From Patescibacteria group bacterium (GTDB lineage: Bacteria; Patescibacteriota; Patescibacteriia; UM-FILTER-42-10): a DNA stretch of 64,000 bases. A program made the translations under genes and the position numbers. The notes under the pieces were generated by a model. It saw only the letters and a list, made by a program, of their open reading frames with translations. It did not search any database and had not been told where the DNA came from. The stretch lies in contig JBAYKW010000001.1 of NCBI GenBank assembly GCA_041664365.1, forward strand, positions 7,168 to 71,167, given 5' to 3'. Of the stretch, positions 12,101-63,980 are shown piece by piece; within the stretch, counting starts at the first letter, position 1; each line of letters starts with the position of its first letter.

Positions 12101-12302
12101 ATATGATAAGGAATTTACCGGCGGTGTCAATCTTGCCGTGCTTGATATTGATGGAGATAATAAAGCGGAAGTGATCACTGCACCATATAGTGGTAAACAG
12201 AAAGTAAAAGTATGGGACGTCGAATCAACTAAACAAAAACTGCACTCTTCCTTTTGGGGGTTTGGCAAGGATTTTGAAGGTGGAATCAATTTTGCCCGGT
12301 AA
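9111..12302 (+). CDS. secreted M4 (thermolysin-like) zinc metallopeptidase with FTP/PepSY propeptide and C-terminal FG-GAP/VCBS β-propeller repeats
   Basis: Signal peptide. HEYGH zinc site within VAHEYGHGVTQF, plus GALSESYADVFGEAVE. At least six repeats of the form GDxNxDGxxEIIVxP. 1063 aa. Confidence 0.8.
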   Translation: MKKIITFFLTLTISVIYLVGVFHNAYAESNQTEDSNIAQLQNEDGKETLTDLQNKLGDNLQYTIDQNTGNLSFIKSQGNGIPLTGASSNAVGGTSMAGLFLKEYGALFGINDPVSDLSVMKETTDALGMKHIRYNQRYAGVPVFGGEVIVHLNGNLTVASANGRAISNTSLDVTPVISSEVAVTKAKEIWQNQFDTDNPEVLKTNLYVFNKSLFNKNNEDQNYLVWQIELYKKTPSLHEFYFIDTRDGSLVHQITGIKNAISRRIYDCSYGDGFCYLDAYDAVSAYTLGRSEGKPIRGTNPWYGLTDVDNLYSITGYAHNYFLNTFSLNGANNLGGLGDGTYVPYTRTEGLAYIDPVYPACPNAFYDGYAINFCTGWVTTDIVAHEYGHGVTQFSVVDGYGNPAGLIYSDESGALSESYADVFGEAVENYSDGSGDWLIGEDLTGGALRSMSDPMSMSYPDRFNSPYFYCGDSDQGGVHINNSVPNYAAYLMAMGGTFNNCTINGIGRAKEEAIYYRALTQYLTTSSGFNDAYNALVTSCQDLYGALSSDCRQVVKALRAVEMNQGGYCSGQTAVDPGCAVIDATPSVTQVSSDKADGTYIAGTVIDIDVTFSKAVTSSGEITVTLETGATDRSCTFSVSNAAFGSCDYTIQAGDNSNDLNVKSISGSITDAYGNTVTDLTPGSDLSSNKNIKIGAPTLGLLLSQASDTEPFIKRVGHHGNKIKSFAVHKGKGGVLSVEADINGDGINEIVVAPEAGLGGKVKAYTKNGAALASFSPFGSKFNDGISLTSGDVNNDGKKEIIVSPLTKGTPKIKVFRYANKKFTLLKEIKVFGSSVPGGLIVSSGDVNDDNIDEIIVSPYQDQDKKDRVVKIYAYRNNKLVKLASKQLYSKRTEYQGIKTTTADLDGDGRDEIIATPSLNFGDDIQVYGYANGGLTHLDDVWAYSASFNGLTSLATGDINSDGRNEIMLTIKTGGLPYVFIYKFNNGKLVLHDKFRAYDKEFTGGVNLAVLDIDGDNKAEVITAPYSGKQKVKVWDVESTKQKLHSSFWGFGKDFEGGINFAR

Positions 12303-12405
12303 TTTTGTGGACAATATATATTAATTCTTCATGAAAGCAACGTAACACTTTGATTGCTATATTTTGTGTATTTGAATAAATAATTTCGGTAAATAAGATA
12401 CCGCT

Positions 12406-42384: not shown

Positions 42385-43305
42385 ATGAACAAAATCAACT
42401 TCAAAAACAGGGACGTTATCTCAATCAGGGATTTTTCCAAGCAGGAAATCCTCCATGTACTGAAAAAAGCCAAAGAATTTAAAAGCTCACCAAAGACCGA
42501 CCTGCTCAAAGGAAAAATCATGGCCAGTTTGTTTTTTGAGCCGTCTACCAGAACCCGCTTCTCGTTTGAATCCGCGATGCAGCGGCTGGGGGGTTCCGTC
42601 ATAACTCTGGCTGACGCGAAAACCAGTTCTTCCGCGAAGGGCGAGTCGCTATCTGACTCTATCCGGATCGTGGAAAAGTACTGCGACGTTATCGTCATGC
42701 GCCATTCACTGGAAGGCGCGGCACGTCTGGCAGCGGATGTTTCGAATAATCCGATTTTAAACGGCGGTGACGGTGCCAATCAGCATCCGACCCAGACTTT
42801 CCTGGATCTGTTTTCCATACTGGAAACGCAAAAAAAACTGAATGGCTTAAATGTGGCGATGGTCGGAGATCTGAAATACGGACGCACAGTTCACTCTCTG
42901 GCGTATGCGCTGTCGCTGTTCAACTGCCGGCTGTACTTTATCTCACCGGAATCCCTAAAAATGCCAAAGCATGTATTAAATGAGATTAAAGAGAATAAAA
43001 CTAAATACTCCGAACATACCCGGCCGGAGGGGCTGATGCCGAAAATGGATATTTTCTACGCGACTCGTATCCAGAAAGAAAGATTTGCGGACGCGATGGA
43101 ATACGAAGAAGTGAAGGATGTTTACATCATCAATAATGAACTGCTGAAAAAGGTAAAAAAGAATTTCCGGATCCTGCACCCGCTGCCGAGAGTGAATGAG
43201 ATTAATTATGAAGTGGATGATACTCCTTACGCTTACTACTTTCAGCAAGCTTCCAACGGCCTTTGGGTACGCGAAGCACTTTTAGCCTTAACCTTAGGAA
43301 AATAA
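42385..43305 (+). CDS. pyrB: aspartate carbamoyltransferase catalytic subunit
   Basis: Motifs STRTRFSFESA, HPTQ and HPLPR. Confidence 0.9.
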   Translation: MNKINFKNRDVISIRDFSKQEILHVLKKAKEFKSSPKTDLLKGKIMASLFFEPSTRTRFSFESAMQRLGGSVITLADAKTSSSAKGESLSDSIRIVEKYCDVIVMRHSLEGAARLAADVSNNPILNGGDGANQHPTQTFLDLFSILETQKKLNGLNVAMVGDLKYGRTVHSLAYALSLFNCRLYFISPESLKMPKHVLNEIKENKTKYSEHTRPEGLMPKMDIFYATRIQKERFADAMEYEEVKDVYIINNELLKKVKKNFRILHPLPRVNEINYEVDDTPYAYYFQQASNGLWVREALLALTLGK

Positions 43306-43308
43306 ACT

Positions 43309-43758
43309 ATGCGCGCCTATAAAGTTTACGCAATCAAAGACGGTACAGCAATTGACCACATCCCTTCGGGAAAGGGTATGGATGTGATTAATCTGCTGGG
43401 AGTTGCTAATGACCAGGACATTGTTACCCTGGGTATGCATTTCAACAGCAAAAGGAACAAGAAAAAGGATGTGGTGAAAATTGAAAACAGAGAACTCACA
43501 CCGGAGGAAGTTAGCAGATTGGCAATCGTTGCGCCAAATGCTACGATTAATATCATCCGGAATTTTGAAGTTGCAAAAAAGATTCCAATCAAAATCCCGG
43601 AACAAATAAACGGGATAATAAAATGCGGTAATCCGAATTGTGTCACCAACCACGAACCGGTGGTAACAAAATTCACGCTAGTCAAGGAAAAGCCGATTGA
43701 ATTGTACTGTTTCTTTTGCGAGCGGACGTTTGGGATAGATGAAATAACACTTGCCTGA
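43309..43758 (+). CDS. pyrI: aspartate carbamoyltransferase regulatory subunit
   Basis: 149 aa. C-terminal zinc domain CGNPNC…CFFCE. Confidence 0.85.
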   Translation: MRAYKVYAIKDGTAIDHIPSGKGMDVINLLGVANDQDIVTLGMHFNSKRNKKKDVVKIENRELTPEEVSRLAIVAPNATINIIRNFEVAKKIPIKIPEQINGIIKCGNPNCVTNHEPVVTKFTLVKEKPIELYCFFCERTFGIDEITLA

Positions 43759-47527: not shown

Positions 47528-48316
47528 ATGAACAGCGAACCATCATTTCCGAATGATCAAGATCGCGAGCAGTCAGCGGAGATGCCGAGGGAAATAGAAA
47601 CAAAAATTGTAAATTTAGGTGATCCGGAAGAATTTAAAAAACGCCTATTGGATCTGGGCGCTGTACTTGTTGATGGCAGGCGTCTTTTACAGGACCGCAG
47701 TTTTAAGCGGGAAAAAGATAAACAAGTGGATAGTACCGACCTTCCTTTTAATACCGCCGAGGTTAAAGACCCGACCGATTTACAGAATGTTCTGGAGCTG
47801 TTGGGAGTAGATATTGTCTCTGAGCCGGATGAGAGTGGAGTTATGATGATTCGTACACGTGCAGGCGCTCCTGTCCGTATGGTGCGTTTAAGAAAAGAAA
47901 ATGATACGACAGTCCTGACAATCAAGGAAAAAAGAAATAAAGCACAGACAGTGGATAATCGGATGGAAACCGAGGTGGAATTGATTGATGAAAATTCGCT
48001 GAATCAATTATTGGCATCAATGAGGTATTCGCATTTGGCTGATAAGGAAAAATACCGGACAACATACGGATTAGACGGATGTAAGGTTGAATTAAACGAG
48101 GGTCCGATTGGAGCGCCTTGGGCGGAGATTGAAGCGGGAAGTGAAGAACAGGTTATAGCGCTTGCCAATGCGCTGGGTTATCAGCCGGAAGATTTGGCCG
48201 GTATGTCGGATGCGGATTATTATGCACTTAAAGTTCCTGATCTTACACCAGAGGAACTTAATAACATGACTTTTGCCAAAATGAAAGACAGGGCACCAAA
48301 AGACCAACCGGAATAA
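47528..48316 (+). CDS. CYTH-domain (triphosphate tunnel metalloenzyme) protein
   Basis: N-terminal EIETKI (ExExK signature). 262 aa. Embedded between pyrE and pyrF. Confidence 0.5.
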   Translation: MNSEPSFPNDQDREQSAEMPREIETKIVNLGDPEEFKKRLLDLGAVLVDGRRLLQDRSFKREKDKQVDSTDLPFNTAEVKDPTDLQNVLELLGVDIVSEPDESGVMMIRTRAGAPVRMVRLRKENDTTVLTIKEKRNKAQTVDNRMETEVELIDENSLNQLLASMRYSHLADKEKYRTTYGLDGCKVELNEGPIGAPWAEIEAGSEEQVIALANALGYQPEDLAGMSDADYYALKVPDLTPEELNNMTFAKMKDRAPKDQPE

Positions 48317-49250: not shown

Positions 49251-50186
49251 ATGAGACACTGTCTTACTCTAAAAGACTATTCCAAAGAGGATATCCTGGA
49301 AATAATCCGCAAGGCGCAGGAGATCAAAGCCAATCCGGAAAGATACGGGGATGTTTTGAAAAACAAAACACTAATCATGCTGTTCCAGAAGACATCCACC
49401 CGCACACGTCTATCCTTTGAAGCCGGCATGACTCAGCTGGGCGGACATGCGATATTTTTGGACAGCCGGACATCTCAGTTCGCATTAACCGATTATAAAG
49501 ACGAGATCCAGGCGGTGATGCGTTTTGGTGATGTGCTGATGTTCCGGGCAAAATCCTTTAATGACGTAAATATTGCCGCATCCCTCAACAAAATTCCGGT
49601 CATCGATGCCTGTTCCGAGAAATACCATCCTTGCCAGTCACTGGGAGATCTCTTGACCATGGTGGAACACAGCGGGGGAATTGAAAATATCAAAAAAGTA
49701 ACTTGGCTCGGCATTGAAAACAATGTCAGCAACACACTGAAACTGGTCTGCGCCAAACTGGGGATCGATATCTATCTGGCGGCACCAAAGGTACACGAAA
49801 TCAGCGTTGATGAAGAGCTAAACCAAATGGCAGAAGCAACCGGGAAGGTACACAAAACTGTGGATATGGAAGAAGCAATGAAAGATACGGATTACGTTCA
49901 CACCGACACCTGGATGGATATGGAATTTTTTGAAGACGGCAAAGTGAAGCCGGAATTTCAAGCGGAATATGAGAAGAGAATAGAAGAATTCAAGCCGTTC
50001 CAGCTCAATGCCGGAATCGTGGATAAATACAGCCCCAAGGTCGGAATTATGCACTGTATGCCGTGCCATGTCGGCTATGAGATATCACGTGACGCTATTG
50101 ATCATCCCAACTCCATAATTTTTGATCAGGCGGAAAACAGGATGCATATTCAAAAAGCCATCATTTTGTGGCTCATGGGGAAATAG
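49251..50186 (+). CDS. ornithine carbamoyltransferase-like protein (OTC/ArgF family)
   Basis: Motifs STRTRLSFE, HPCQ and HCMP, closer to OTC than to ATCase (pyrB is separate at 42385). Confidence 0.7.
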   Translation: MRHCLTLKDYSKEDILEIIRKAQEIKANPERYGDVLKNKTLIMLFQKTSTRTRLSFEAGMTQLGGHAIFLDSRTSQFALTDYKDEIQAVMRFGDVLMFRAKSFNDVNIAASLNKIPVIDACSEKYHPCQSLGDLLTMVEHSGGIENIKKVTWLGIENNVSNTLKLVCAKLGIDIYLAAPKVHEISVDEELNQMAEATGKVHKTVDMEEAMKDTDYVHTDTWMDMEFFEDGKVKPEFQAEYEKRIEEFKPFQLNAGIVDKYSPKVGIMHCMPCHVGYEISRDAIDHPNSIIFDQAENRMHIQKAIILWLMGK

Positions 50187-50203
50187 ATAAAAACCTTATT
50201 TCA

Positions 50204-50240
50204 CAAAACAGGCTCTGAATATTTCAGGGCTTGTTTTTTG
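50204..50240 (+). terminator. intrinsic terminator (caggctctgaa-tat-ttcagggcttg + T6)
   Basis: Stem with G·U pairs that forms only on the + strand, then TTTTTT. Confidence 0.55.
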
Positions 50241-50577
50241 TTTAAGTGTGTAATTCGGAGACCCACAAAAAGTAATGGATTCTCGGATCGCCTCCGATGT
50301 CGGTGTCCAAAAAACCTCCCCCGGAAATTATTTCTCAATCTAAGAACCCGACACGTCCTTCCCCTCCTTATCAAGGAGGGGAGCAGATTATTGTTACTAT
50401 TTTAAAATCATGTTCCGGAGGGGTGGTAAACCCAAGGGTAATTTACGGCAATCCCGTTCCTATGTTATTGCCATTCTGAACTTGTTTCAGAATCCATTAT
50501 TGCTATGGAACCGGAGATGCTGAAACTAGTTCAGCATGGCAGAATAATAACGGAATTCCTTTCAATGGGTACTGTTT

Positions 50578-50904
50578 TTATGTTAATAGACGATATAGCT
50601 CCAGCAAGCAATCTGAGTTGCGATTGAGATAAAGTGTCTTTGATCCCTTGGTAACATTTGGAAATCTTATTGATGATAATCTGTCGAACTCTTCATCACT
50701 AAGCTCGGTGTCGGTTATCTCCAGACCATTTTCCTCTGCCAGTTGTTTGATCGCTTCGGCCTGCTCGATAGATAGACCGACCAACAGGATTTTGCCGTTA
50801 ATCGATGCGGTTTGTGATTTGATAAAATCCAGAGAGGGGATAGTATCATGAGTATCGGTTGACTCACTAATATCAAGACTCGGGTTCATGTCCAGTGTTT
50901 TCAT
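50578..50904 (-). CDS. acidic hypothetical protein (108 aa)
   Basis: AT-rich ORF on the - strand inside the duplication-flanked insert. No domain recognised. Confidence 0.45.
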   Translation of the reverse strand: MKTLDMNPSLDISESTDTHDTIPSLDFIKSQTASINGKILLVGLSIEQAEAIKQLAEENGLEITDTELSDEEFDRLSSIRFPNVTKGSKTLYLNRNSDCLLELYRLLT

Positions 50905-51020
50905 AGAAGATTGTTATGAATTATTGTATTAGATAGTTATTTAATTTCAGCAATTATTTGCACAACATTATCTTAACATTACGATTCAGGTAAAGCAATC
51001 TGAATGTGGCCAAAATGCAG

Positions 51021-51047
51021 TTGACACATTTTAGTCGGTATTATAAT
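51021..51047 (+). promoter_or_regulatory. TTGACA-N15-TATAAT promoter for RidA gene
   Basis: TTGACA at 51021-51026, TATAAT at 51042-51047. GGGAGG RBS at 51099-51104. Confidence 0.45.
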
Positions 51048-51110
51048 ATTGCTAACCGTTCGCGCCTGTATTTGCAGGCATTTGCTGTGTCCGCAATCCG
51101 GGAGGTTACA

Positions 51111-51506
51111 ATGCCCAAGAAACAGAAGCCCGCGGGGATCCTCGCGATGGAGAGTGTCGGTCAGCCGTTTTCGACCTGCGTGCAGATCGGCAACCACTTC
51201 CACTTCTCCGGCACGGTCGGCCGGGTCGTCGACGGCAGGGTCGTCGGTGATCTCGAAGAGCAGATCGAGGAGATCTTCACCAAGATGGATAGCATGCTGG
51301 GCGTCTGCGAACTGTACCCCGACGATGTCTTCAGCGCCACGATCCTGCTGGCCGGCGACATGTCGGGCTACGGTCTCGTCAACACGAGCTGGAATCTGTT
51401 CTTCCGGTCCGCGGAGATCATGCCCCGTCGCAAGGCCTACGCCGTGAGCGCGCTGCCCTTCGACGCGCTGATCGAGATCGAGTTCGACGCGGTCAAGCAG
51501 GACTGA
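51111..51506 (+). CDS. RidA/YjgF/L-PSP family protein (GC-rich)
   Basis: Start at the ATG following GGGAGGTTACA. C-terminal AYAVSALPFDALIEIE resembles the RidA signature. The track's overlapping ORFs (51006, 51049) are alternative frames in GC-rich DNA. Confidence 0.7.
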   Translation: MPKKQKPAGILAMESVGQPFSTCVQIGNHFHFSGTVGRVVDGRVVGDLEEQIEEIFTKMDSMLGVCELYPDDVFSATILLAGDMSGYGLVNTSWNLFFRSAEIMPRRKAYAVSALPFDALIEIEFDAVKQD

Positions 51507-51534
51507 ACGCCCAAGCGGAACAAGCTGTACACAA

Positions 51535-51566
51535 GAGGATTCCATCCGGGGTCCTCATTTTTTATT
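51535..51566 (+). terminator. hairpin gaggattcc-atcc-ggggtcctc + ATTTTTTATT
   Basis: 9-bp stem with 2 G·U pairs, then a T6 tract. Confidence 0.5.
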
Positions 51567-51568
51567 AT

Positions 51569-51657
51569 AAAAAGCCATCATTTTGTGGCTCATGGGGAAA
51601 TAGGATAATAATCTTTACAACAAAACAGGCTCTGAATGTTTCAGGGCTTGTTTTAGA
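51569..51657 (+). repeat. direct duplicate of 50152-50240 (last 11 codons of the OTC-like gene plus its terminator)
   Basis: aaaagccatcattttgtggctcatggggaaatag is identical in both copies. The terminators acaaaacaggctctgaat(a/g)tttcagggcttgtttt are near-identical. The 16-nt spacer between has diverged. Confidence 0.7.
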
Positions 51658-51676
51658 TTTTTAGGTTTATTAGAAA

Positions 51677-52993
51677 TCAGCAACCATTGCGAGTACTACG
51701 AATGTAGGACGATGCAATCCTGATACTTTTTGACTTAAGTGCATTATCCCTAGGATCTTTTTTTGTCTCACCTTTTTTATTAATATTCTTATAATTTGTA
51801 AGACTTTCTGTAAATGTCGGCATTCCAATTTTAACTAGGGTATCTTTAGTTACATCACCATTAGTAGGCTTAAGTCCATATTTTTTTAATACTTTCTTTA
51901 TTACCGATTGAAGGCTATCGTCTAAAACAGAGTAATGTGATTTTTCATAATTAGTATAATAGTATGTTGCTCCCCAATTATCAACTCGAGTTTTCAGATA
52001 GTTGAGTGTTTTAAATAGACCATTTCTGTTTACTATTTTTATATCTTTAATAATTTTCTTAAATGCATTTGGCACAGGATATATTTTACTGCCTCGGAAT
52101 TTGATTCCAAGAAATTCAAAATCACTTCTCTCTATAGTGCAATACTTGTTATTATCCTTTGGTTTACTTATTGATAATGGATGTAATTTAAGTCGTAGTT
52201 TGTTCTCAATAATTTCTTTAGCAACTTTATGCATTTTTACTGCCTCTTCTTTTGTCTTGCACATAATAATAAAATCGTCTGCATAACGTACCATTTTATA
52301 ATTATGTTTTATCATTATCTCATCTAGTGGGTATAAATAAATGTTTGCAAATAATGGTGAAAGTATCCCTCCTTGAGGTATTCCGCCCTCTTTTGTCACG
52401 AAATTATCATATTCTCCAATTAAAATAAGATCATTCTTGTTACCTATCTCATTAATCAATGCACCTTCAATCAACTTATTTATTGATTTATCAGGTAAAC
52501 AAGGAAAAACATAATTATTTAGTAGATTAGAGACATCTATAGTATCAAAAAATTTTCTAATATCTGCATTATACACCCATTCATAACCGTGTTTTTTATA
52601 AAGTACAATTCTATCAACAGCATCTTTAACACGCTTTTTTTTAATGTATGCAAAACTTACAGGATTATCAATGTTATATCTTACTTTGATATAGTCAAAA
52701 ATTACAAGTTCAATTGCTTTTTGAACAACTCTGTCACGAACTGCGGGTATTTTGATAGCTCTAGTTTTCGATCCTTTCTTTAAAGGATAGCCTCTTAATG
52801 CTAAAAATTTGTATTTATTGTTAAGTAGATCTTTTCTAATAAAATTAAGCTGATTTTTTAAGTCATTTTCGAAATCCTCTATTGTCTGATTATCAATGCC
52901 TTTAGATTTATCTCTATGCTTTATTGAATCCCAAGAAAGTCGCAAATTATTTTGAGTTGCGACTTTTTTAAGTAGATTATTCGTTTTTTTCAT
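51677..52993 (-). CDS. group II intron-type reverse transcriptase/maturase (no endonuclease domain)
   Basis: RT motifs TRAIKIPAVRDRVVQKA, GIPQGGILSPLFANIYL and RYADDFIIMC (YADD). Maturase X-like NWGATYYYTN. 438 aa. Confidence 0.75.
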   Translation of the reverse strand: MKKTNNLLKKVATQNNLRLSWDSIKHRDKSKGIDNQTIEDFENDLKNQLNFIRKDLLNNKYKFLALRGYPLKKGSKTRAIKIPAVRDRVVQKAIELVIFDYIKVRYNIDNPVSFAYIKKKRVKDAVDRIVLYKKHGYEWVYNADIRKFFDTIDVSNLLNNYVFPCLPDKSINKLIEGALINEIGNKNDLILIGEYDNFVTKEGGIPQGGILSPLFANIYLYPLDEIMIKHNYKMVRYADDFIIMCKTKEEAVKMHKVAKEIIENKLRLKLHPLSISKPKDNNKYCTIERSDFEFLGIKFRGSKIYPVPNAFKKIIKDIKIVNRNGLFKTLNYLKTRVDNWGATYYYTNYEKSHYSVLDDSLQSVIKKVLKKYGLKPTNGDVTKDTLVKIGMPTFTESLTNYKNINKKGETKKDPRDNALKSKSIRIASSYIRSTRNGC

Positions 52994-53052
52994 AATTAGT
53001 ACCCCTAAGCTCTCCGGCTGGTCTGCACCAGTGTAACCTGCTTTTAAGGATA

Positions 53053-53215
53053 TAGTGCAGTCTTAGAGTTGGTAACATTCAGGCTGATGGTTATAACCAT
53101 TAACATTATTGTCAGCATTCTGAGACTTAAGCTACTTAGTACCTTGTAGATTGAATTATACCGATTCATCGTGAATTGGCAAATATTGTCTATTTTGGTG
53201 TTTAAATAAGCAGCT
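53053..53215. repeat. tandem direct repeat copy A (~158 bp)
   Basis: Differs from copy B at only 3 positions (tta/atg and a/g). Confidence 0.7.
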
Positions 53216-53372
53216 AAATTTACTCGGCCGCCGATATCCGCCAAAATGCTATCGGCTTCCGGCGCTATTTTTCGCCATTCCATGTTCTTTGCTGTTAATA
53301 ATAATTCTTGTTCCGCCAATCCGGAGGCTTGGGCGCTACAATTAGCGGTTCCAGAATAAAGCAAGTTACATG

Positions 53373-53535
53373 CAGTCTTAGAGTTGGTAACATTCAGGCT
53401 GATGGTTATAACCATTAACATTATTGTCAGCATTCTGAGACTTAAGCTACTTAGTACCTTGTAGATTGAAATGTACCGATTCGTCGTGAATTGGCAAATA
53501 TTGTCTATTTTGGTGTTTAATAGCATATACAAAAT
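53373..53535. repeat. tandem direct repeat copy B (~158 bp)
   Basis: Near-identical to 53053-53215. A 157-bp more GC-rich spacer separates the copies. Confidence 0.7.
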
Positions 53536-53656
53536 AACATAGAATATAGTTTTGTCAACTCCATTAGTATACTAATCGATATCAATCCGTGATCATAGAA
53601 TCGAGAATAACCAAAACAACGCATTTAGAAATTATTGATAATAACTATTTTTCGTT

Positions 53657-54091
53657 CTAGCAATCCTTCTTCTCATCTTTTTCCGACTGCGCCAGTAAAT
53701 ACTCCAAGACCTTGTATTCCGAAAGTTCTTCTACATTCGACTTTTTAATTAATCTATCGAAGTATAAAACTAAAAACAAAACAATGAAGAGTGATATAGT
53801 AACATACCAATTCATAGAATGAATGACTTCATTCAAAGCATTTAATAGTAAACTACCAGTTATACCTAGAGCGAATCCAAATGTAACTGATACCAACGTT
53901 TGTCTATCTTGTTTGATATTATTCAAAGCATTTTGCAATCCGATATTTTCTATATCAAAAGCTGCTATGTATTTTTCAACTACAGCATTTTGTTGATTAG
54001 CCGAAAGTTTCTGCCACAACTTCTTATTGGAGCGCTTTAGTCTTTTAGTAATTTCTTTCCTAAGGTCATTTTCCCTCTTTTGTAAATTCAT
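53657..54091 (-). CDS. small membrane protein (2 TM), last gene of defence-like operon
   Basis: 144 aa with a charged N-terminal half and two hydrophobic helices. Confidence 0.45.
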   Translation of the reverse strand: MNLQKRENDLRKEITKRLKRSNKKLWQKLSANQQNAVVEKYIAAFDIENIGLQNALNNIKQDRQTLVSVTFGFALGITGSLLLNALNEVIHSMNWYVTISLFIVLFLVLYFDRLIKKSNVEELSEYKVLEYLLAQSEKDEKKDC

Positions 54092-54100
54092 AATGATAAT

Positions 54101-54646
54101 CTAATTTTTAATTTTCTTCGCGATCCATGCTCCGCCCCCAATAAGTATTCCTAAGCCTACAGCCCAATCCGTGAATGATCCTGAATTGTTTGACGAATTA
54201 GTGCTTGCAGAATTTGTCGGGGTAATCTGATTTGCTAAAGTCGCTGCACCTTTTACTTCGCCTTGATCATCAGTTTGTACAGAAGCCTCATCAAGTTCTC
54301 TTTGTAAATTTTCTTTTTCTTCTTCCAGTCTTTTGATTTCCGTTTGCTGATTTTCGTACTCAGTTTTGGCATTTGAATAATCAGCGTAAGAATAATATGT
54401 CCTACCATTAAATTCATAGGTTATTGGTGTTGGGGCGGTGTATGTTTCTGCCTCTTCTTCTGTTCCATTACATTCTGGATAATATGGCGCACATGTAGCG
54501 GATAATGGCGTGCCATCACAACAACCACAACCACATACCCCATCATGATGTGAACAGCATCCACTTCTTGCATCTGCATTATATTGTGGCAATAACAAAA
54601 ACAACCCAAATATGAAGATACTTAGGATATAATGCACTTTTTTCAT
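54101..54646 (-). CDS. secreted Cys-rich, coiled-coil protein with C-terminal membrane anchor
   Basis: Signal peptide; CCSHHDGVCGCGCCDG…C…C; EIKRLEEEKENLQRELDEA coiled coil; C-terminal hydrophobic GLGILIGGGAWIAKKI. Confidence 0.45.
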   Translation of the reverse strand: MKKVHYILSIFIFGLFLLLPQYNADARSGCCSHHDGVCGCGCCDGTPLSATCAPYYPECNGTEEEAETYTAPTPITYEFNGRTYYSYADYSNAKTEYENQQTEIKRLEEEKENLQRELDEASVQTDDQGEVKGAATLANQITPTNSASTNSSNNSGSFTDWAVGLGILIGGGAWIAKKIKN

Positions 54647-54789
54647 TGTGATTTGCCCAATAGTTAGCTATATTTCAACACTACTCCAACTTATCCTAGA
54701 AATCAAGAAAACCGCTTTTGGAGGATGCTTAATTAACCTCTGTACAGACACAATATTTCTGTTTAGGAACCATCATGTAGTAATCTGTG

Positions 54790-55761
54790 TCAAATCAATC
54801 TACTAACAGAAAAACCGTCTACTTTTTTCGTGCTCTTGTTTATTTTAATACTTATATTTTTAACTACACTTGGAAGTATTTCATCAACAGATTTATCAAG
54901 ATTTATTGAATCACCTGAACAGGTAATACTAATTGCAATGCTACAATTCACATACACGTAATAGTACTTTTCATCAGCTTTATATATATAATAATTCCAT
55001 ATAAATACATCATTGTATTCATGATCAACAATATTTTCAAGTTGTATATTTCTGTCTATATTAACTGCGAAGAATAATTCTTCAGGGTATACAAGATTAT
55101 TTATATCATTTAATCCTATCTCCTCAATCATCAGCGATAAGTATTGCTCATTAATAAATTCTATCTTTTCAGCATAATCTGTTAAAAATTTATCTAATAA
55201 ATTATAAAAATAAACATCAGATTCTTTTCTTAATTCTTCATGTAACTCATCTGAATCACCAAAAGCATTTCTATCATTTGAGATAAAACATAAATCATTA
55301 CATTTATTGCGAGCAAATTTAACTTCCTCCCATATTATGAAATCTCGAAATCCAATGTCACTATACTTTTTAGTAGAGTGGAAAGGAGGTTTATTATTTA
55401 ATGATCTACTTATAATTTGTGGGACTAGTACAGGACAGCTTAAATTATCAATAATCTCTATATTCTTATTTTCTACTATCTTTAGCAACCTTTTTTTGTA
55501 TCCAGTTACTTCATTATTTTTAAGCGTAATTTCGCTTGATGTAGATATTTTCAATTTCTTTTTGAATTCTTTCAATGACTTTTCTATATCTTTACAGTCA
55601 TCAATTTCTTTACTGAAGTTTTTTATTGTTTCAGATATCACAATGTCAGGAATAAATAGTTTCGATTTAGTTTTTTTTAAATACGCAAATAATGCTTGGA
55701 ATCTTGGAGTATCAAGATAGTAATTATCTTTTAATTCAGTTGAATCAAGAATTATATTCAT
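54790..55761 (-). CDS. PIN-like (DUF4935-type) domain protein
   Basis: Conserved acidic positions in MNIILDSTEL, IPDIVISETIKNF, IGFRDFIIWEEV and CFISNDRN fit a PIN-like nuclease fold. 323 aa. Confidence 0.4.
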   Translation of the reverse strand: MNIILDSTELKDNYYLDTPRFQALFAYLKKTKSKLFIPDIVISETIKNFSKEIDDCKDIEKSLKEFKKKLKISTSSEITLKNNEVTGYKKRLLKIVENKNIEIIDNLSCPVLVPQIISRSLNNKPPFHSTKKYSDIGFRDFIIWEEVKFARNKCNDLCFISNDRNAFGDSDELHEELRKESDVYFYNLLDKFLTDYAEKIEFINEQYLSLMIEEIGLNDINNLVYPEELFFAVNIDRNIQLENIVDHEYNDVFIWNYYIYKADEKYYYVYVNCSIAISITCSGDSINLDKSVDEILPSVVKNISIKINKSTKKVDGFSVSRLI

Positions 55762-55781
55762 TAAAATATTATTAAATTATA

Positions 55782-56888
55782 CTAAATTTGGGAGAATCCC
55801 AAATCCTTTCCAATTGGCTTGAGCACCCCATCATTTACAGTTGCAATACCAAGATCTAGCGAATTAATAAACTGTATGTATTTATCATCACGCGGTTCAC
55901 GAGAAGGTGTAAGTATTTTGTATTGATCACTGAATTTAAGATTTTTTTCTTTTTTAAATTTGTTAATCTCAAAATAGTCATATTCATATAATTGAACAAT
56001 TGCTTTCCTTGCCTGTGATCTAAAATTTCTATTTTCAGTACTTTTTACTTCAAATAAGAATGAGCGTTTTTCATCATGTGCAAATAAATCAACAAATTCA
56101 TTTGATAAGGTTGCATATCCTTTTTTTCTAAAAATATCGATTAGATTTTGCAAAACTGAATAGTGGGATGATTCTGCCCTCGCAAGAATCTCATTATCTC
56201 TTGTTATTATAGAATGTGGCTTAGTGATAATTCTTTCATTAATTTCATTTATAAACCTTAATGACGCTGCGTGACGCAGTGTCTCAGTCGCATTATGTAC
56301 TTCATAAAAATCAGATGGCTTATCCTGTATAATATTTCCTCTTGTTGAGTGTCCAGAATATAAATATAATGATCTCTGTCTGAATAATATTTGTTTCGCA
56401 ACCTCTGGTGAAACTTTTGAGAAACTACCCATTCGTGGGAAGCCTTCTATTTCCGATACTGGTATTGAGTTTTCAACCAGTTTATCAATTAAATGAGCTG
56501 TCTGTTCATTATTATTTGGATTAGGGGATTCCCAAGTTGCTGGATCGGGTATTTCACCAAATAAATATATTTCTGTTAGTGGAACTAATAATGGCCATCT
56601 ATTTTCATTATGTTTAACTTCGTAATGCCATAAATAATTATCTTTAATTGAAAAATGAAACCCAACGACCCCTATTCCTATAATCCCGGATTTTGCATTT
56701 CGAAATGCAGAGTTATTTGAGCCAGTACTATGGATAAAAAAGATATCACCAGTCTGTATTTTCCCCCATCTTTCCTTTAAATGTGATTCCAATCCCCATG
56801 TCATGTACTTAAAAGCAGTCAGCCAATGCTCAGGTGGACCTGTAAATCTAAATAATTGTTTTGTGCTTATAGCTGAACTTAAATTCAT
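55782..56888 (-). CDS. PUA-like (EVE/ASCH-type) domain fused to PD-(D/E)xK nuclease - candidate modification-dependent restriction enzyme
   Basis: Start taken at MNLSSAIS (overlaps the MazG stop as TAAtATG). N-terminus FRFTGPPEHWLTAFKYMTWGLES…GDIFFIHSTG…IIGIGVV is PUA-like. C-terminus FVDLFAHDEKRSFLFEVKST…QLYEY carries a D…EVK nuclease motif. Confidence 0.45.
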   Translation of the reverse strand: MNLSSAISTKQLFRFTGPPEHWLTAFKYMTWGLESHLKERWGKIQTGDIFFIHSTGSNNSAFRNAKSGIIGIGVVGFHFSIKDNYLWHYEVKHNENRWPLLVPLTEIYLFGEIPDPATWESPNPNNNEQTAHLIDKLVENSIPVSEIEGFPRMGSFSKVSPEVAKQILFRQRSLYLYSGHSTRGNIIQDKPSDFYEVHNATETLRHAASLRFINEINERIITKPHSIITRDNEILARAESSHYSVLQNLIDIFRKKGYATLSNEFVDLFAHDEKRSFLFEVKSTENRNFRSQARKAIVQLYEYDYFEINKFKKEKNLKFSDQYKILTPSREPRDDKYIQFINSLDLGIATVNDGVLKPIGKDLGFSQI

Positions 56889-56889
56889 A

Positions 56890-57237
56890 TTACAAATTTG
56901 TATATTTTGTGTGTTTACCCTTTGCTTTGTCAATTGGATACTTTTCTTCATTCTTTTTAATCTTTTTCTCAAGCGCTTCTTCAATATCAATATTCAAATC
57001 ATTACTCATTAATAGCACCCAGTATAAAACATCCGCCAACTCTTCTCCAATATCCGATTTGTTTGTATCAATATATTTTTTTATCTCTTCATCATTCTTC
57101 CATTGGAAATGTTCCATAACTTCTCCTGCCTCAAGCATAAGCGATAATGCGACGTCTTTTGGATTGTGAAATTGTTTCCAATCTCGGGCATCCCTGAAAG
57201 CAATTACTTGTTTTATTAATTCTTCAATATTTTTCAT
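56890..57237 (-). CDS. MazG-like nucleotide pyrophosphohydrolase
   Basis: Motifs RDARDWKQFH…LMLEAGEVMEHF…EELADVLYWVLLMSNDLNID. Confidence 0.65.
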   Translation of the reverse strand: MKNIEELIKQVIAFRDARDWKQFHNPKDVALSLMLEAGEVMEHFQWKNDEEIKKYIDTNKSDIGEELADVLYWVLLMSNDLNIDIEEALEKKIKKNEEKYPIDKAKGKHTKYTNL

Positions 57238-57394
57238 ATAGTTTAAATAATGCTTATATATATAACAATCCTACGCCCATATTAGCCAATTATCAAGCTC
57301 TTTTTTGTTGAGGAAATAATAGCAAAATAACCATAAAACCTGGGGGCCGGGGCCACATGAAGGATGATAGAGAGAATCAGGATAAGACCCCCGG

Positions 57395-57475
57395 AATTAA
57401 TTCACTTATTTCAAAGAGTAACGGGATTGCTTCATCCTACATTCGTAGGACTCGCAATGGTTACTGCTATCTGTA
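57395..57475 (+). mobile_element. remnant of a second group II intron RT 3' end, inverted relative to the intact copy
   Basis: gggattgcttcatcctacattcgtaggactcgcaatggttactg matches the reverse complement of 51677-51722 (RT C-terminus …IASSYIR.TRNG). It abuts the miaA stop. Confidence 0.5.
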
Positions 57476-57489
57476 TTGGTGTGAGGGGA

Positions 57490-58368
57490 TTATCCCAGAA
57501 AATCAGCAACTAGTGCTTCCGCCTCTTGGGTGCTTTTAACCCATTTTATCCGACCGTCGCGCTTGAACCATGTCATTTGCCGTTTGGCGTAATGATGGGA
57601 GTCGTTCTTAATACTGGCTATCGCATCATCAAGTGACAGCTCATGCTTAAAATAGGCGGAAAGCTGTTTGTAGCCGATCGCGGACATTGCAGGGATCTCC
57701 CAGCCGTATTGCTCGCCCAGTGCTTTCACCTCATCTACCAAGCCCTCTTGAATCATCTCATCCACTCGGCGGTCGATGCGGTCATACATTTCTTCCCGGG
57801 ATAATTTGATGCCGATTTGCAGGGCATCTAAGTTCGGTGATTTTTTCCCCTTTAGTTCCGAATACTTCTCGCCGGATATTTTGAAAACTTCTATTGCCCG
57901 GATCAGCCGGCGTTTATTATTAATATCTATTTCCTGTGCCGATTTATAGTCCAGCTGAATCAGCATCTTGAACAGCTCTTCGGCGGTCTTTTCTTCCAAT
58001 TTGTTACGTAAAACTTTATCGACTCCTCCTTTGGGGATGTCCAGATTATCCACGATGGACTGGATGTAGAGGCCGGTACCGCCGACCAGGAAGGGTAGTT
58101 TTTCTTTTTCTTCGTTGATGATGGCGAAGACTGTTTTCTGAAACTGCGCCAGACTGAATTCCTGATCCGGGTCCATAATGTCAATCATCCGGTGAGTAAT
58201 GCCCTGCCATTTGTCTTTGGTTAATTTTCCGGTGCCGATATCCATACCGCGGTAAACCTGGCGGGAGTCGGCAGAGATTATATATCCGTTAAATTTCTTC
58301 GCCAAGGCTAAAGACATGCCGGTTTTACCGGCGGCGGTTGGTCCTAGGATGACGACGATTTTTTTCAT
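57490..58368 (-). CDS. miaA: tRNA dimethylallyltransferase
   Basis: P-loop ILGPTAAGKT and the MiaA fold. 292 aa. Confidence 0.9.
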   Translation of the reverse strand: MKKIVVILGPTAAGKTGMSLALAKKFNGYIISADSRQVYRGMDIGTGKLTKDKWQGITHRMIDIMDPDQEFSLAQFQKTVFAIINEEKEKLPFLVGGTGLYIQSIVDNLDIPKGGVDKVLRNKLEEKTAEELFKMLIQLDYKSAQEIDINNKRRLIRAIEVFKISGEKYSELKGKKSPNLDALQIGIKLSREEMYDRIDRRVDEMIQEGLVDEVKALGEQYGWEIPAMSAIGYKQLSAYFKHELSLDDAIASIKNDSHHYAKRQMTWFKRDGRIKWVKSTQEAEALVADFLG

Positions 58369-62822: not shown

Positions 62823-63980
62823 TTATTTCGAGATTACGATTTCGATATGATCCTTTAATGAAGGGGAGCGGAACACCCAAAACGGAGAGAATTTCACGTC
62901 CACATTTTGAATTTCCGGGAAGTCCAGAAAATATGTCTTGATCTCCTGTTTATCACGGTTCAAAAGATTGTCACGGTCAAAAATCGGACTGGCTAATTTT
63001 ACTTTGGTTGTGCCGTCCAGTTTAACGCTTAAAACAGCCGTTTGGTTTTCCAGGTCAAATGATTTTATAGCATATTGCAGGAGGTTTATTTCCGTACCGG
63101 CCAGTTCTTTGTTGCTGGAGACTTTTTCTGACAATAAATTTTTCGCGTAATTGAACAATTCAGTTTCGTCAAAGACAGCAGCTATTACATTTATCTTGCT
63201 GGTTATTTCAAAAGAATTAACCTCGGCATCGGGTTTAACACTCGCTTCTTCATTCAGTATCTGATAGACAACTGCCTGTGGCAGGATTTTTTCTGCTGAA
63301 TTTTCTATTGCAATCTCTCGGGACAATTCTTCCGCCGCTTTTTCCTTTAATTCAACGGCAAACTCTTCTTTGGAATCGTTGATGTCTTTCAATGTGGCGA
63401 CAGTTACATCACGGAGTCCATTATTCATTGCTTCTGAACTCTCGGCGTAAATTTTATCCTGCAAACCTTTCCAGAGGGCGACAATTGTAAAACGGGAAGG
63501 TCCGATATTTCCCGTCTCGCCTGACTGGTCGGCTTCCACTTCGACTTCCACTTGTCCGCCGGCCGGGACGGTTACTGTTTCTTTGGTCCGGAACAGAACA
63601 TCGTCTTCAGAAAGCAGGCGTGTAGACGCGACCAAAGGTTGATTGCTAGTATATTTATTATAAATTGTAACCGTTCCTTCCGCCTTACCCTGAACTTTGC
63701 TCTGACTGGTTACATTGGTAAATGTTTTAGTTTCCTCGATCTGTTTTTCCACCAACCGACCCGGTAGAGAATTAGTCTGATTTTCAAGTTGATTTATTTC
63801 GGCAGTCAAAGGCAAATCAAAAGAAATACTGACCGCTTCGGGGCTTGGGGTGATTGTAATCACCGTTTTGGCCAGTGATACATATACAATGGCGACTACC
63901 GCAACCAAAGCCACACCAAGAAACAGTACAGCCATTTTTGAATAGCGCTTTCCAATTTTTGTTTTTTTGATTGTCGGCAT
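62823..63980 (-). CDS. membrane-anchored extracytoplasmic hypothetical protein
   Basis: N-terminal TM helix (MAVLFLGVALVAVVAIVYV) then a ~350-aa Thr/Ser/Glu-rich domain. Complete within the window. Confidence 0.5.
   Translation of the reverse strand: MPTIKKTKIGKRYSKMAVLFLGVALVAVVAIVYVSLAKTVITITPSPEAVSISFDLPLTAEINQLENQTNSLPGRLVEKQIEETKTFTNVTSQSKVQGKAEGTVTIYNKYTSNQPLVASTRLLSEDDVLFRTKETVTVPAGGQVEVEVEADQSGETGNIGPSRFTIVALWKGLQDKIYAESSEAMNNGLRDVTVATLKDINDSKEEFAVELKEKAAEELSREIAIENSAEKILPQAVVYQILNEEASVKPDAEVNSFEITSKINVIAAVFDETELFNYAKNLLSEKVSSNKELAGTEINLLQYAIKSFDLENQTAVLSVKLDGTTKVKLASPIFDRDNLLNRDKQEIKTYFLDFPEIQNVDVKFSPFWVFRSPSLKDHIEIVISK

Follow-up and report, generated by a model that had tools for sequence, protein, structure and literature searches.

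The locus described here belongs to a Patescibacteria group bacterium (assembly GCA_041664365.1), an organism placed near Kerfeldbacteria and Magasanikbacteria, and it was analysed within a stretch of 64,000 nucleotides, hereafter the window (contig JBAYKW010000001.1, positions 7,168 to 71,167 of the forward strand), which is part of the 392-kb MEGAHIT metagenome contig k141_744634 (ENA ERZ27249449). Its subject is a carbamoyltransferase (CT) gene whose 3′ end and terminator occur a second time 1.4 kb downstream, next to an island that begins with a reverse transcriptase (RT) gene and is closed by the convergent gene miaA. The loci and contigs of relatives that were compared with the window are designated by L-numbers. 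The features on which the argument turns are the following:

49251..50186, + strand: CT, an ornithine-carbamoyltransferase-like gene of 311 aa (Pfam OTCace_N and OTCace), a mosaic with an L008-like 3′ part
50152..50237, + strand: copy 1, comprising the functional end of the gene (11 codons and stop), a 23-nt spacer and terminator 1
50205..50237, + strand: terminator 1 of 33 nt, with a 15-bp hairpin and then a T run
51564..51573, + strand: novel joint, from the RidA terminator tail to CT position −34 (ATTAT joined to AAAAAGCC)
51569..51654, + strand: copy 2, an orphan gene end without a start codon, including terminator 2 (51622-51654)

Comparison of the region with itself returned a single repeat family, the direct pair 50152-50237 and 51569-51654, each 86 nt long and separated by 1417 nt from start to start, in agreement with the earlier note on this DNA, which had reported the CT gene end and its terminator hairpin to be repeated 1.4 kb downstream. 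The two copies are 86% identical without gaps, differing at 12 of 86 positions, and 90.8% identical when BLAST introduces one gap, and their flanks are unlike each other. This identity is distributed as a mosaic, with 35 matches in the first 35 positions, 5 in the 23 positions of the spacer and 34 in the last 35, where the sole mismatch lies in the hairpin loop. The exact 35-nt core, AAAAAGCCATCATTTTGTGGCTCATGGGGAAATAG, corresponds to the final 11 codons (KAIILWLMGK) and the stop of CT, and copy 2 likewise consists of 11 codons and a stop in frame, followed by its terminator; both copies fold into a 15-bp hairpin and then a U run. None of the relatives has a 23-nt spacer like that of copy 1, and copy 2 has the spacer type of L007, L008 and L096. 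With up to 3 mismatches allowed, the window contains exactly two occurrences each of the 35-mer and of a 27-nt hairpin core (0 expected, 100 shuffles), no third copy being found there at the same tolerance, and the only other exact repeat of at least 25 nt in the window is the unrelated pair 53056/53371. The two copies are therefore significantly similar, as the proposed self-comparison was meant to establish, and the 86-nt repeat is confirmed as real and non-random. For annotation, copy 2 should not be taken as a gene fragment of functional significance.

The gene that supplies this end is itself composite. Compared with L008, CT shows 51 differences in nt 1-403 (12.7%), 5 in its last 186 nt and 0 in its last 66 nt, and a maximum chi-square test with permutation over the variable sites places a breakpoint at p ~0.001, the whole gene being 91% identical at the nucleotide level. 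The comparison with L095 shows the opposite trend, with the least divergence at the 5′ end (6%) and more of it, 13%, over the last 186 nt. Among the close relatives L007, L008, L095 and L096, the CT protein is 93-98% identical. From these patterns of substitution, CT is a mosaic gene with a homologous crossover inside it, the signal of which lies ~200-500 nt upstream of the repeat. A genome of the L008 type (L105) co-occurs in the same sample and carries neither RidA nor RT at its CT locus. As for the function of CT, its score against the NCBIfam OTC models (290.6) falls just under the cut-off of 306, and its assignment to ornithine as substrate is not certain. The genome has pyrB and pyrI (42385-43758) besides CT, which is a second carbamoyltransferase of the OTCase type at the end of the pyr operon. 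Between pyrE and pyrF lies a 262-aa ORF (47528-48316) that is kept in L007, L011 and L095, and a relative's version gives a weak CYTH match.

The DNA that follows CT differs strongly between relatives. In the distant relatives L018, L011 and L054, CT and miaA lie 40-600 bp apart, and in the close relatives the DNA after the CT terminator is unrelated from genome to genome. L007 (CT 98% identical at the aa level) has the terminator, a restriction-modification island, a short intergenic element termed ‘elem’, a 96-aa ORF and miaA; L008 (96%) has the terminator, a conserved non-coding block termed ncR, the 96-aa ORF, a patatin-like gene and miaA; L096 (93%) has the terminator, ‘elem’ in + orientation and then a DpnII-type island; and L095 (97%, on a 1.18-Mb contig) has a Fic gene, a second CT end, an HpaII restriction-modification system, ‘elem’, a RidA cassette, the 96-aa ORF, a 108-aa ORF and miaA. 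In the window, the place after copy 2 is taken by an island with RT, PIN and MazG genes. Judged from these comparisons, the CT-miaA interval is a hypervariable slot. Since ncR stands in this slot in L008, and the 108-aa ORF and RidA in that of L095, the window carries two versions of the slot in tandem, the second of which begins at CT position −34. The segment between the copies, previously described as an insert, is not foreign, self-contained DNA, its parts being present in the same slot of relatives, ncR after the terminator in L008 and the 108-aa ORF and RidA in L095. Within the L095 insert, four TTATTGCTGCATTTTA-like motifs (12190-12330) lie upstream of the HTH-Fic gene and look like operator sites.

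All genes up to 50186 lie on the + strand and all genes from 51677 on lie on the − strand, and the GC skew turns from positive to negative at 50-52 kb together with this switch. Because gene orientation and skew change sign there, the convergent junction of CT and miaA is probably the replication terminus. The whole window was searched for a dif-like site; at a tolerance of up to 3 mismatches nothing matched the general consensus, which may not be that of this phylum.

The interval between the two copies contains four features:

50255..50455, unstranded: ncR, a conserved, hairpin-rich non-coding block that follows the CT terminator in L008 too
50469..50554, unstranded: double-hairpin intergenic element of ~87 nt, downstream of the 108-aa ORF
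50578..50904, − strand: 108-aa acidic ORF without a family match (19 D+E against 10 K+R; 42% GC)
51021..51568, + strand: RidA cassette, with a promoter-like TTGACA-N17-TAATAT, the gene at 51111-51506 and a hairpin/T-run terminator at 51535-51566

Over ~200 aligned nt, ncR differs from its L008 counterpart by 15 mismatches and 2 indels. It is far better conserved than the synonymous sites of the adjacent gene (dS 0.5), but the idea that it is more conserved than coding sequence was rejected, CT being 91% identical to L008. Its folding is weakly better on the − strand (z −2.3), and an Rfam search over 49900-58000 gave two sub-threshold matches at chance level and no family for either ncR or ‘elem’. 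ncR may be either a structured RNA or recently exchanged DNA. The double-hairpin element recurs in inverted orientation between pyrF and CT in L096 (1014-1100; 88.5% over 87 nt) and looks like a portable bidirectional terminator. For the 108-aa ORF, a single homolog was found, in the L095 genome, where it adjoins miaA with 61% aa identity, a dS of 1.35 and a dN/dS of 0.22, which makes it a real gene, of about the age of the split between the two genomes. The remnant of a miaA 3′ end that a mirror-image displacement might have left in 50905-51025 was sought and rejected, local alignments being no better than those of shuffles.

The RidA gene (Pfam Ribonuc_L-PSP, E=7e-16) stands out by its composition of 62% GC and 89% GC3. 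From the −35 box to the terminator tail, the cassette is 87% identical over ~555 nt to one in L095 (18434-18991). The dS of RidA between the window and L095 is 0.16 and its dN/dS 0.82, compared to a dS of 0.7-1.6 for CT, pyrB, pyrC, pyrE, pyrF, miaA and the 108-aa ORF, and a dN/dS of 0.03-0.2 for the neighbours; therefore the cassette moved between the lineages after their split. It looks like a recently exchanged 550-bp unit of promoter, gene and terminator under what these ratios suggest to be unusual selection. RidA genes of 61-62% GC (GC3 83-89%) were seen in three Patescibacteria genomes of 40-44% GC, in the window, in L095 (18526-18921) and in L093 (3930-4385). A recent arrival from a GC-rich donor was rejected, since L095 and a Parcubacteria homolog show the same GC-richness of the gene; RidA has been circulating within the phylum. 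One gene-calling pipeline annotated an antisense ORF of 188 aa (50979-51545) in place of RidA, and annotators should be aware that the GC-rich gene is real despite this call. The contents listed for this interval in the earlier note, among them an acidic ORF on the − strand and a RidA gene with a promoter and a terminator, were recovered, except that the ORF, at 42% GC in a genome of 43%, is not AT-rich.

Beyond the joint, the window continues with the following features:

51663..51775, + strand: ‘elem’, placed after the terminator as natively in L096 and overlapping the last RT codons on the other strand
51677..52993, − strand: RT, free-standing and group-II-intron-like, 438 aa, with which the low-GC island begins
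57341..57484, − strand: ‘elem’, directly downstream of miaA in the native position seen in L007, at the right border of the 31.6% GC island
57490..58368, − strand: miaA, conserved and convergent with CT, at the far end of the variable slot

For ~215 nt, copy 2 and the ‘elem’ behind it run colinear with the gene end that is native in L096. Since this is the native arrangement, copy 2 is the older gene end, with its own downstream island. The two ‘elem’ copies are inverted relative to each other (84% over 75 nt), which places this element of ~140 nt at both borders of the island. Its hairpin (CATTGCGAG...GCAATCC) shows compensatory changes in L007, and the hairpin part is scattered over intergenic sites of the relatives, ‘elem’ following CT in L096 and miaA in L007.

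The island between these borders (51.7-57.2 kb) has 31.6% GC against 43% in the genome, and on its − strand RT is followed by unknown proteins of 144 and 181 aa, a PIN_12 protein, an unknown protein of 402 aa and a MazG-like protein; it may be a defence island. RT had been described as starting just beyond the second copy. It is in fact encoded on the − strand, and it is the end of the gene that lies 20 nt past copy 2, with terminator and copy 2 downstream of its stop. It had also been called a group II intron-type RT, which is appropriate as far as its sequence is group-II-like. Its TIGR04416 score of 196 bits, however, falls short of the cut-off of 300, no Pfam maturase domain was found in the protein, and no group II intron RNA domain was matched by Rfam at E <=1 in 49900-58000. 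PADLOC assigns it to RT_UG17 with 136 bits, and it carries a QGxxxSP motif. RT is a neighbour of the duplication and is not implicated as its cause. In the 660-nt non-coding stretch upstream of RT, 53056-53205 and 53371-53520 form a direct repeat of 150 nt with 3 mismatches. It may represent two copies of a non-coding RNA belonging to an RT-based system, and folding of the unit is moderately good on the − strand (z −1.9). A diversity-generating retroelement was rejected as an explanation of this repeat, its mismatches (T/C, T/C and A/T) not being adenine-specific and RT having QGxxxSP. Well beyond the slot, a 385-aa protein with a Baseplate_J domain (62823-63980, − strand) lies amid housekeeping genes (NUDIX, ThrRS), and it occupies the same place in L102.

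Duplicated gene ends are not confined to the window. A set of 82 related loci (0.94 Mb) was scanned for a second copy of their own CT end, and all were compared with themselves by BLAST. L095 has a second CT end that runs from ~−68 through the terminator (119 nt aligned, 95% identical) and brackets a partial ‘elem’ and the Fic gene. In L012, the segment bracketed by a copy of CT −75 to −3 (93%) runs from a terminator through a TTGACA promoter and a 241-aa ORF to a second terminator. L017, in which the downstream gene is smc instead of miaA, carries two extra CT-end copies (85% and 92%) that bracket two cassettes, with left boundaries at −66 and possibly ~−81. These boundaries thus vary, from −34 in the window to ~−68 in L095, −66 and possibly ~−81 in L017 and −75 in L012, and the cassettes of the separate events are unrelated to each other. 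The orphan ends are in frame with a stop at the homologous position (...IMLYLLEKI* in L012; ...LQLLGK* and ...LHLLGT* in L017), and since frame and stop are kept, they are displaced genuine gene ends. At the other side of the slot, the last ~50 nt of miaA including its stop are duplicated in L007 (12183-12233 and 12704-12754; 51 nt, 88%), one copy on either side of the 96-aa ORF, with the native ‘elem’ of miaA behind the distal one; judged by its layout, the scar is of the same type, here at the second conserved gene of the slot. In L085, a 356-aa ORF is enclosed by a repeat of 151 nt whose start lies 27 nt beyond the CT stop. Apart from these CT-end cases, the miaA end of L007 and L085, the self-comparison of the 82 loci gave only direct repeats of paralogs or intergenic elements. 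No integrase or transposase was found with Pfam, NCBIfam, PADLOC or PHROGs in 50238-51568, in the island at 51.7-57.5 kb or in the inserts of L095, L012, L017 and L085, and the duplications of L095, L012 and L017 occur without an RT in the locus.

With moderate confidence, we read the repeat as the scar of an additive recombination between relatives, homologous on one side and illegitimate on the other, that is, as a 3′-end displacement. Additive recombination would have taken place between two versions of one chromosomal locus, both from related Patescibacteria. The relative's DNA would have entered via a homologous crossover inside CT, bringing the 3′ part of CT with its stop, spacer and terminator, followed by ncR, the 108-aa ORF and the RidA cassette, and at its far end, immediately behind the RidA terminator, this DNA would have been linked to position −34 of the resident CT by an illegitimate joint. 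CT would thereby have been rebuilt with the incoming end, now copy 1, and the old end with its terminator, ‘elem’ and the RT/PIN/MazG island would have been shifted 1.4 kb downstream, leaving copy 2 as an untranslated orphan. The insertion of a circularised fragment in the manner of Campbell would be another route to the same product. At the joint, the window reads ...CATTTTTTATTAT followed by AAAAAGCC, and L095, with which the alignment of the window reaches 51572, has ATTAAAAAATCC at the equivalent place; judged against L095 only, up to five A's (A5) may have acted as microhomology. The direction of transfer given here, with one half as donor and the other as recipient, is tentative, and natural transformation may have been the route of entry. 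Taken together, these comparisons indicate no self-mobile element, and a dedicated recombinase would not be needed. What had been noted earlier as a scar of insertion by recombination at the terminator is accordingly to be kept as a scar of added DNA, with the crossover moved into the coding 3′ end and, in view of the mosaic CT, further upstream inside the gene. The comparison with syntenic relatives that had been suggested for this purpose, in both the content of the slot and the context of copy 2, bears out a recombination scar.

Several observations weigh against this reading. Spacer 1, which follows an L008-like gene end, is unlike L008, and spacer 2 is L008-like; the mosaic is therefore so fine that more than one event is needed. 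The order also differs, with 108-aa ORF (−) and RidA (+) in the window versus RidA (+), 96-aa ORF (−) and 108-aa ORF (−) in L095, and a single event does not explain either this order or the unique spacer 1. The A5 microhomology is short, and L095 is only a proxy for the parent sequence. Neither parent was found, whether as CT, terminator, ncR, 108-aa ORF and RidA without copy 2 or as CT, terminator, ‘elem’ and RT island without the insert, and a scan of metagenomes with a degenerate 33-mer of the gene end recovered only L007 and L008 again, with no parental haplotype. Moreover, the same gene end has been reused in lineages that are 72-76% identical, including L017 with its other genomic context, which could point to a targeted process.

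Such a process is the main alternative: a site-specific integrative element, or small mobilisable cassettes, would target the CT 3′ end by means of an integrase or Xer-type recombinase acting in trans, and the two copies would be attL and attR. Direct repeats with an exact 35-nt core do bracket the segment and CT is restored; at least four lineages carry a duplicate of this gene end, L017 with two in tandem and in a context other than CT-miaA; and the skew switch at the slot resembles a terminus, a kind of site at which Xer-dependent elements are known to gather. We nevertheless consider a trans-acting recombinase unlikely, given that neither integrase nor transposase was found in any cassette or in the adjacent island, that the left boundaries are unequal, and that ncR beside copy 1 is ordinary chromosomal DNA, found after the same terminator in L008. 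The crossover in CT also lies well upstream of the repeat, the cassettes are mutually unrelated, and the dif search was negative within the limits of the general consensus. A local tandem duplication starting from CT −34, through unequal crossing-over or template switching at the terminus, with later divergence of the second unit and its replacement by the RT island, seems rather doubtful as well. It would account for direct repeats in a terminus-like region, and the order of RidA and island, a circular permutation of that in L095, would fit duplication followed by deletion. The mismatches of the copies, however, follow a mosaic instead of uniform decay, and the spacer of copy 2 matches other species but not copy 1; several further replacements would be required, and the L008-like 3′ part of CT would be left unexplained.

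That the duplication was made by the assembler, as a chimeric join or a falsely duplicated segment, has to be asked of any MEGAHIT metagenome contig, the more so with the close relative L105 in the same sample. The right junction is supported by two other data sets, independent of the contig of the window. L002, a JGI contig from another sample, is 99.88% identical over 51093-52815 and spans RidA, copy 2 and RT, and the Logan contigs of SRR6484324, L004 (50509-51598) and L006 (51585-53085), are both 100% identical to the window. Both of these stop inside copy 2, as is expected because assemblies with k=31 should break at a 35-nt repeat. The left junction (CT, copy 1 and ncR) is seen in the window's own contig only, where its arrangement equals that of the relative L008. 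The copies moreover differ from each other, as do their flanks, the final k of 141 exceeds the length of the repeat (86 nt, 35 exact), and L105 lacks both RidA and RT at this locus. Since the right junction is crossed in independent assemblies, it is not an artefact, and we regard an assembly error as very improbable for the duplication at large. An even slighter chance is left to an insertion mediated by reverse transcription, either by a class C group II intron that homed beside the terminator or by cDNA of a terminated transcript inserted by the neighbouring RT. The position of RT, 20 nt from copy 2, its closeness to group II intron RTs and the end of the insert exactly at the U run of the RidA terminator (a cassette of L017 likewise ends at a terminator U run) would suit this idea, but RT (−) is opposite in strand to the terminator of copy 2 (+), its score is below the cut-off, intron domains were not detected, and L095, L012 and L017 have the same duplication with no RT.

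Under the preferred reading of one-sided homologous addition, the scar has counterparts among known systems. C-terminal displacement has been described at Rhs loci (Jackson et al., 2009, as cited in PMC5361080), and for the effector-immunity arrays of type VI secretion systems (T6SS) in Vibrio, sequential displacement through homology-facilitated illegitimate recombination has been proposed (Kirchberger et al., 2017, PMC5361080). As in these and in contact-dependent inhibition (CDI) systems, a conserved upstream part of a gene would serve as anchor, incoming DNA adds a new end together with downstream genes, the old end and its genes are shifted as orphans, arrays build up (three ends in L017), and no integrase is involved. 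A conserved anchor bordering variable DNA, an exchange inside the anchor and in-frame orphan ends with their stop are all found here. Unlike in those systems, the displaced tip comprises 11-25 codons of a housekeeping enzyme with nearly the same residues and yields no new protein function; what changes is the cargo, defence-type or unknown genes, and the repeat includes an intrinsic terminator. Homology-facilitated illegitimate recombination is also known from experiments on natural transformation (de Vries and Wackernagel, 2002; Prudhomme et al., 2002; Meier and Wackernagel, 2003; as referred to in PMC5361080), with which the window would share a one-sided homologous anchor and a sharp novel joint, any microhomology there amounting to no more than a few bases. 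Those experiments gave mostly insertion-deletions, whereas the joint lies here 34 nt upstream of the end of homology, and the outcome is therefore a duplication instead of a deletion.

Integrative systems agree with the locus less well. Islands that tyrosine recombinases insert into the 3′ ends of tRNA, tmRNA or protein genes resemble it in their flanking direct repeats, the restored 3′ end and tandem accumulation, and differ from it in that an integrase is absent here, the boundaries vary and the added DNA is homologous to the same locus of relatives; of the marks of an integrative element, direct repeats were found, and a recombinase, a constant crossover position and foreign cargo were not. 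For a transposon or insertion sequence, the repeat of 86 nt compares with target duplications of 2-15 bp, and no inverted repeats at 50238/51568 and no transposase were found. No integron integrase was found, and the cassettes carry their own promoters and are bounded by repeats made of a gene end and a terminator. For a class C group II intron, ribozyme domains are missing, RT is sub-threshold and its orientation is opposite to that of the terminator. Integration of the Campbell type would resemble the window in that two hybrid copies of a homologous segment flank the rest of the circle and the event is reversible by deletion between them, and the exact core of 35 nt is about the minimal length commonly quoted for RecA-dependent exchange. 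The circle is hypothetical here, and the CT crossover ~200-500 nt upstream fits a longer linear anchor better.

It could be speculated from this that promoter-gene-terminator cassettes without a recombinase spread between Patescibacteria by using the 3′ ends of housekeeping genes (CT and miaA) as homology arms, passing through a circle and reinsertion by RecA into integron-like arrays at the terminus. To this we give only a small chance; if it were true, deletion between the copies would release a circle that, after uptake, could reinsert at the same gene end elsewhere. What the scar marks, in these uncultivated bacteria with small genomes, is the junction of CT and miaA as a slot in which co-occurring relatives add and swap defence-type and unknown genes, an exchange that apparently depends on homologous recombination with conserved gene ends as anchors and involves no integrases. 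Displaced ends of this sort could serve to locate such slots and to order their acquisitions, the newest cargo being nearest to the gene. Set beside the Rhs, CDI and T6SS loci, the scar in the window is a further instance of an already known type of event, to which its recurrence at a variable slot located at the probable terminus, in a poorly known phylum, adds modest interest.

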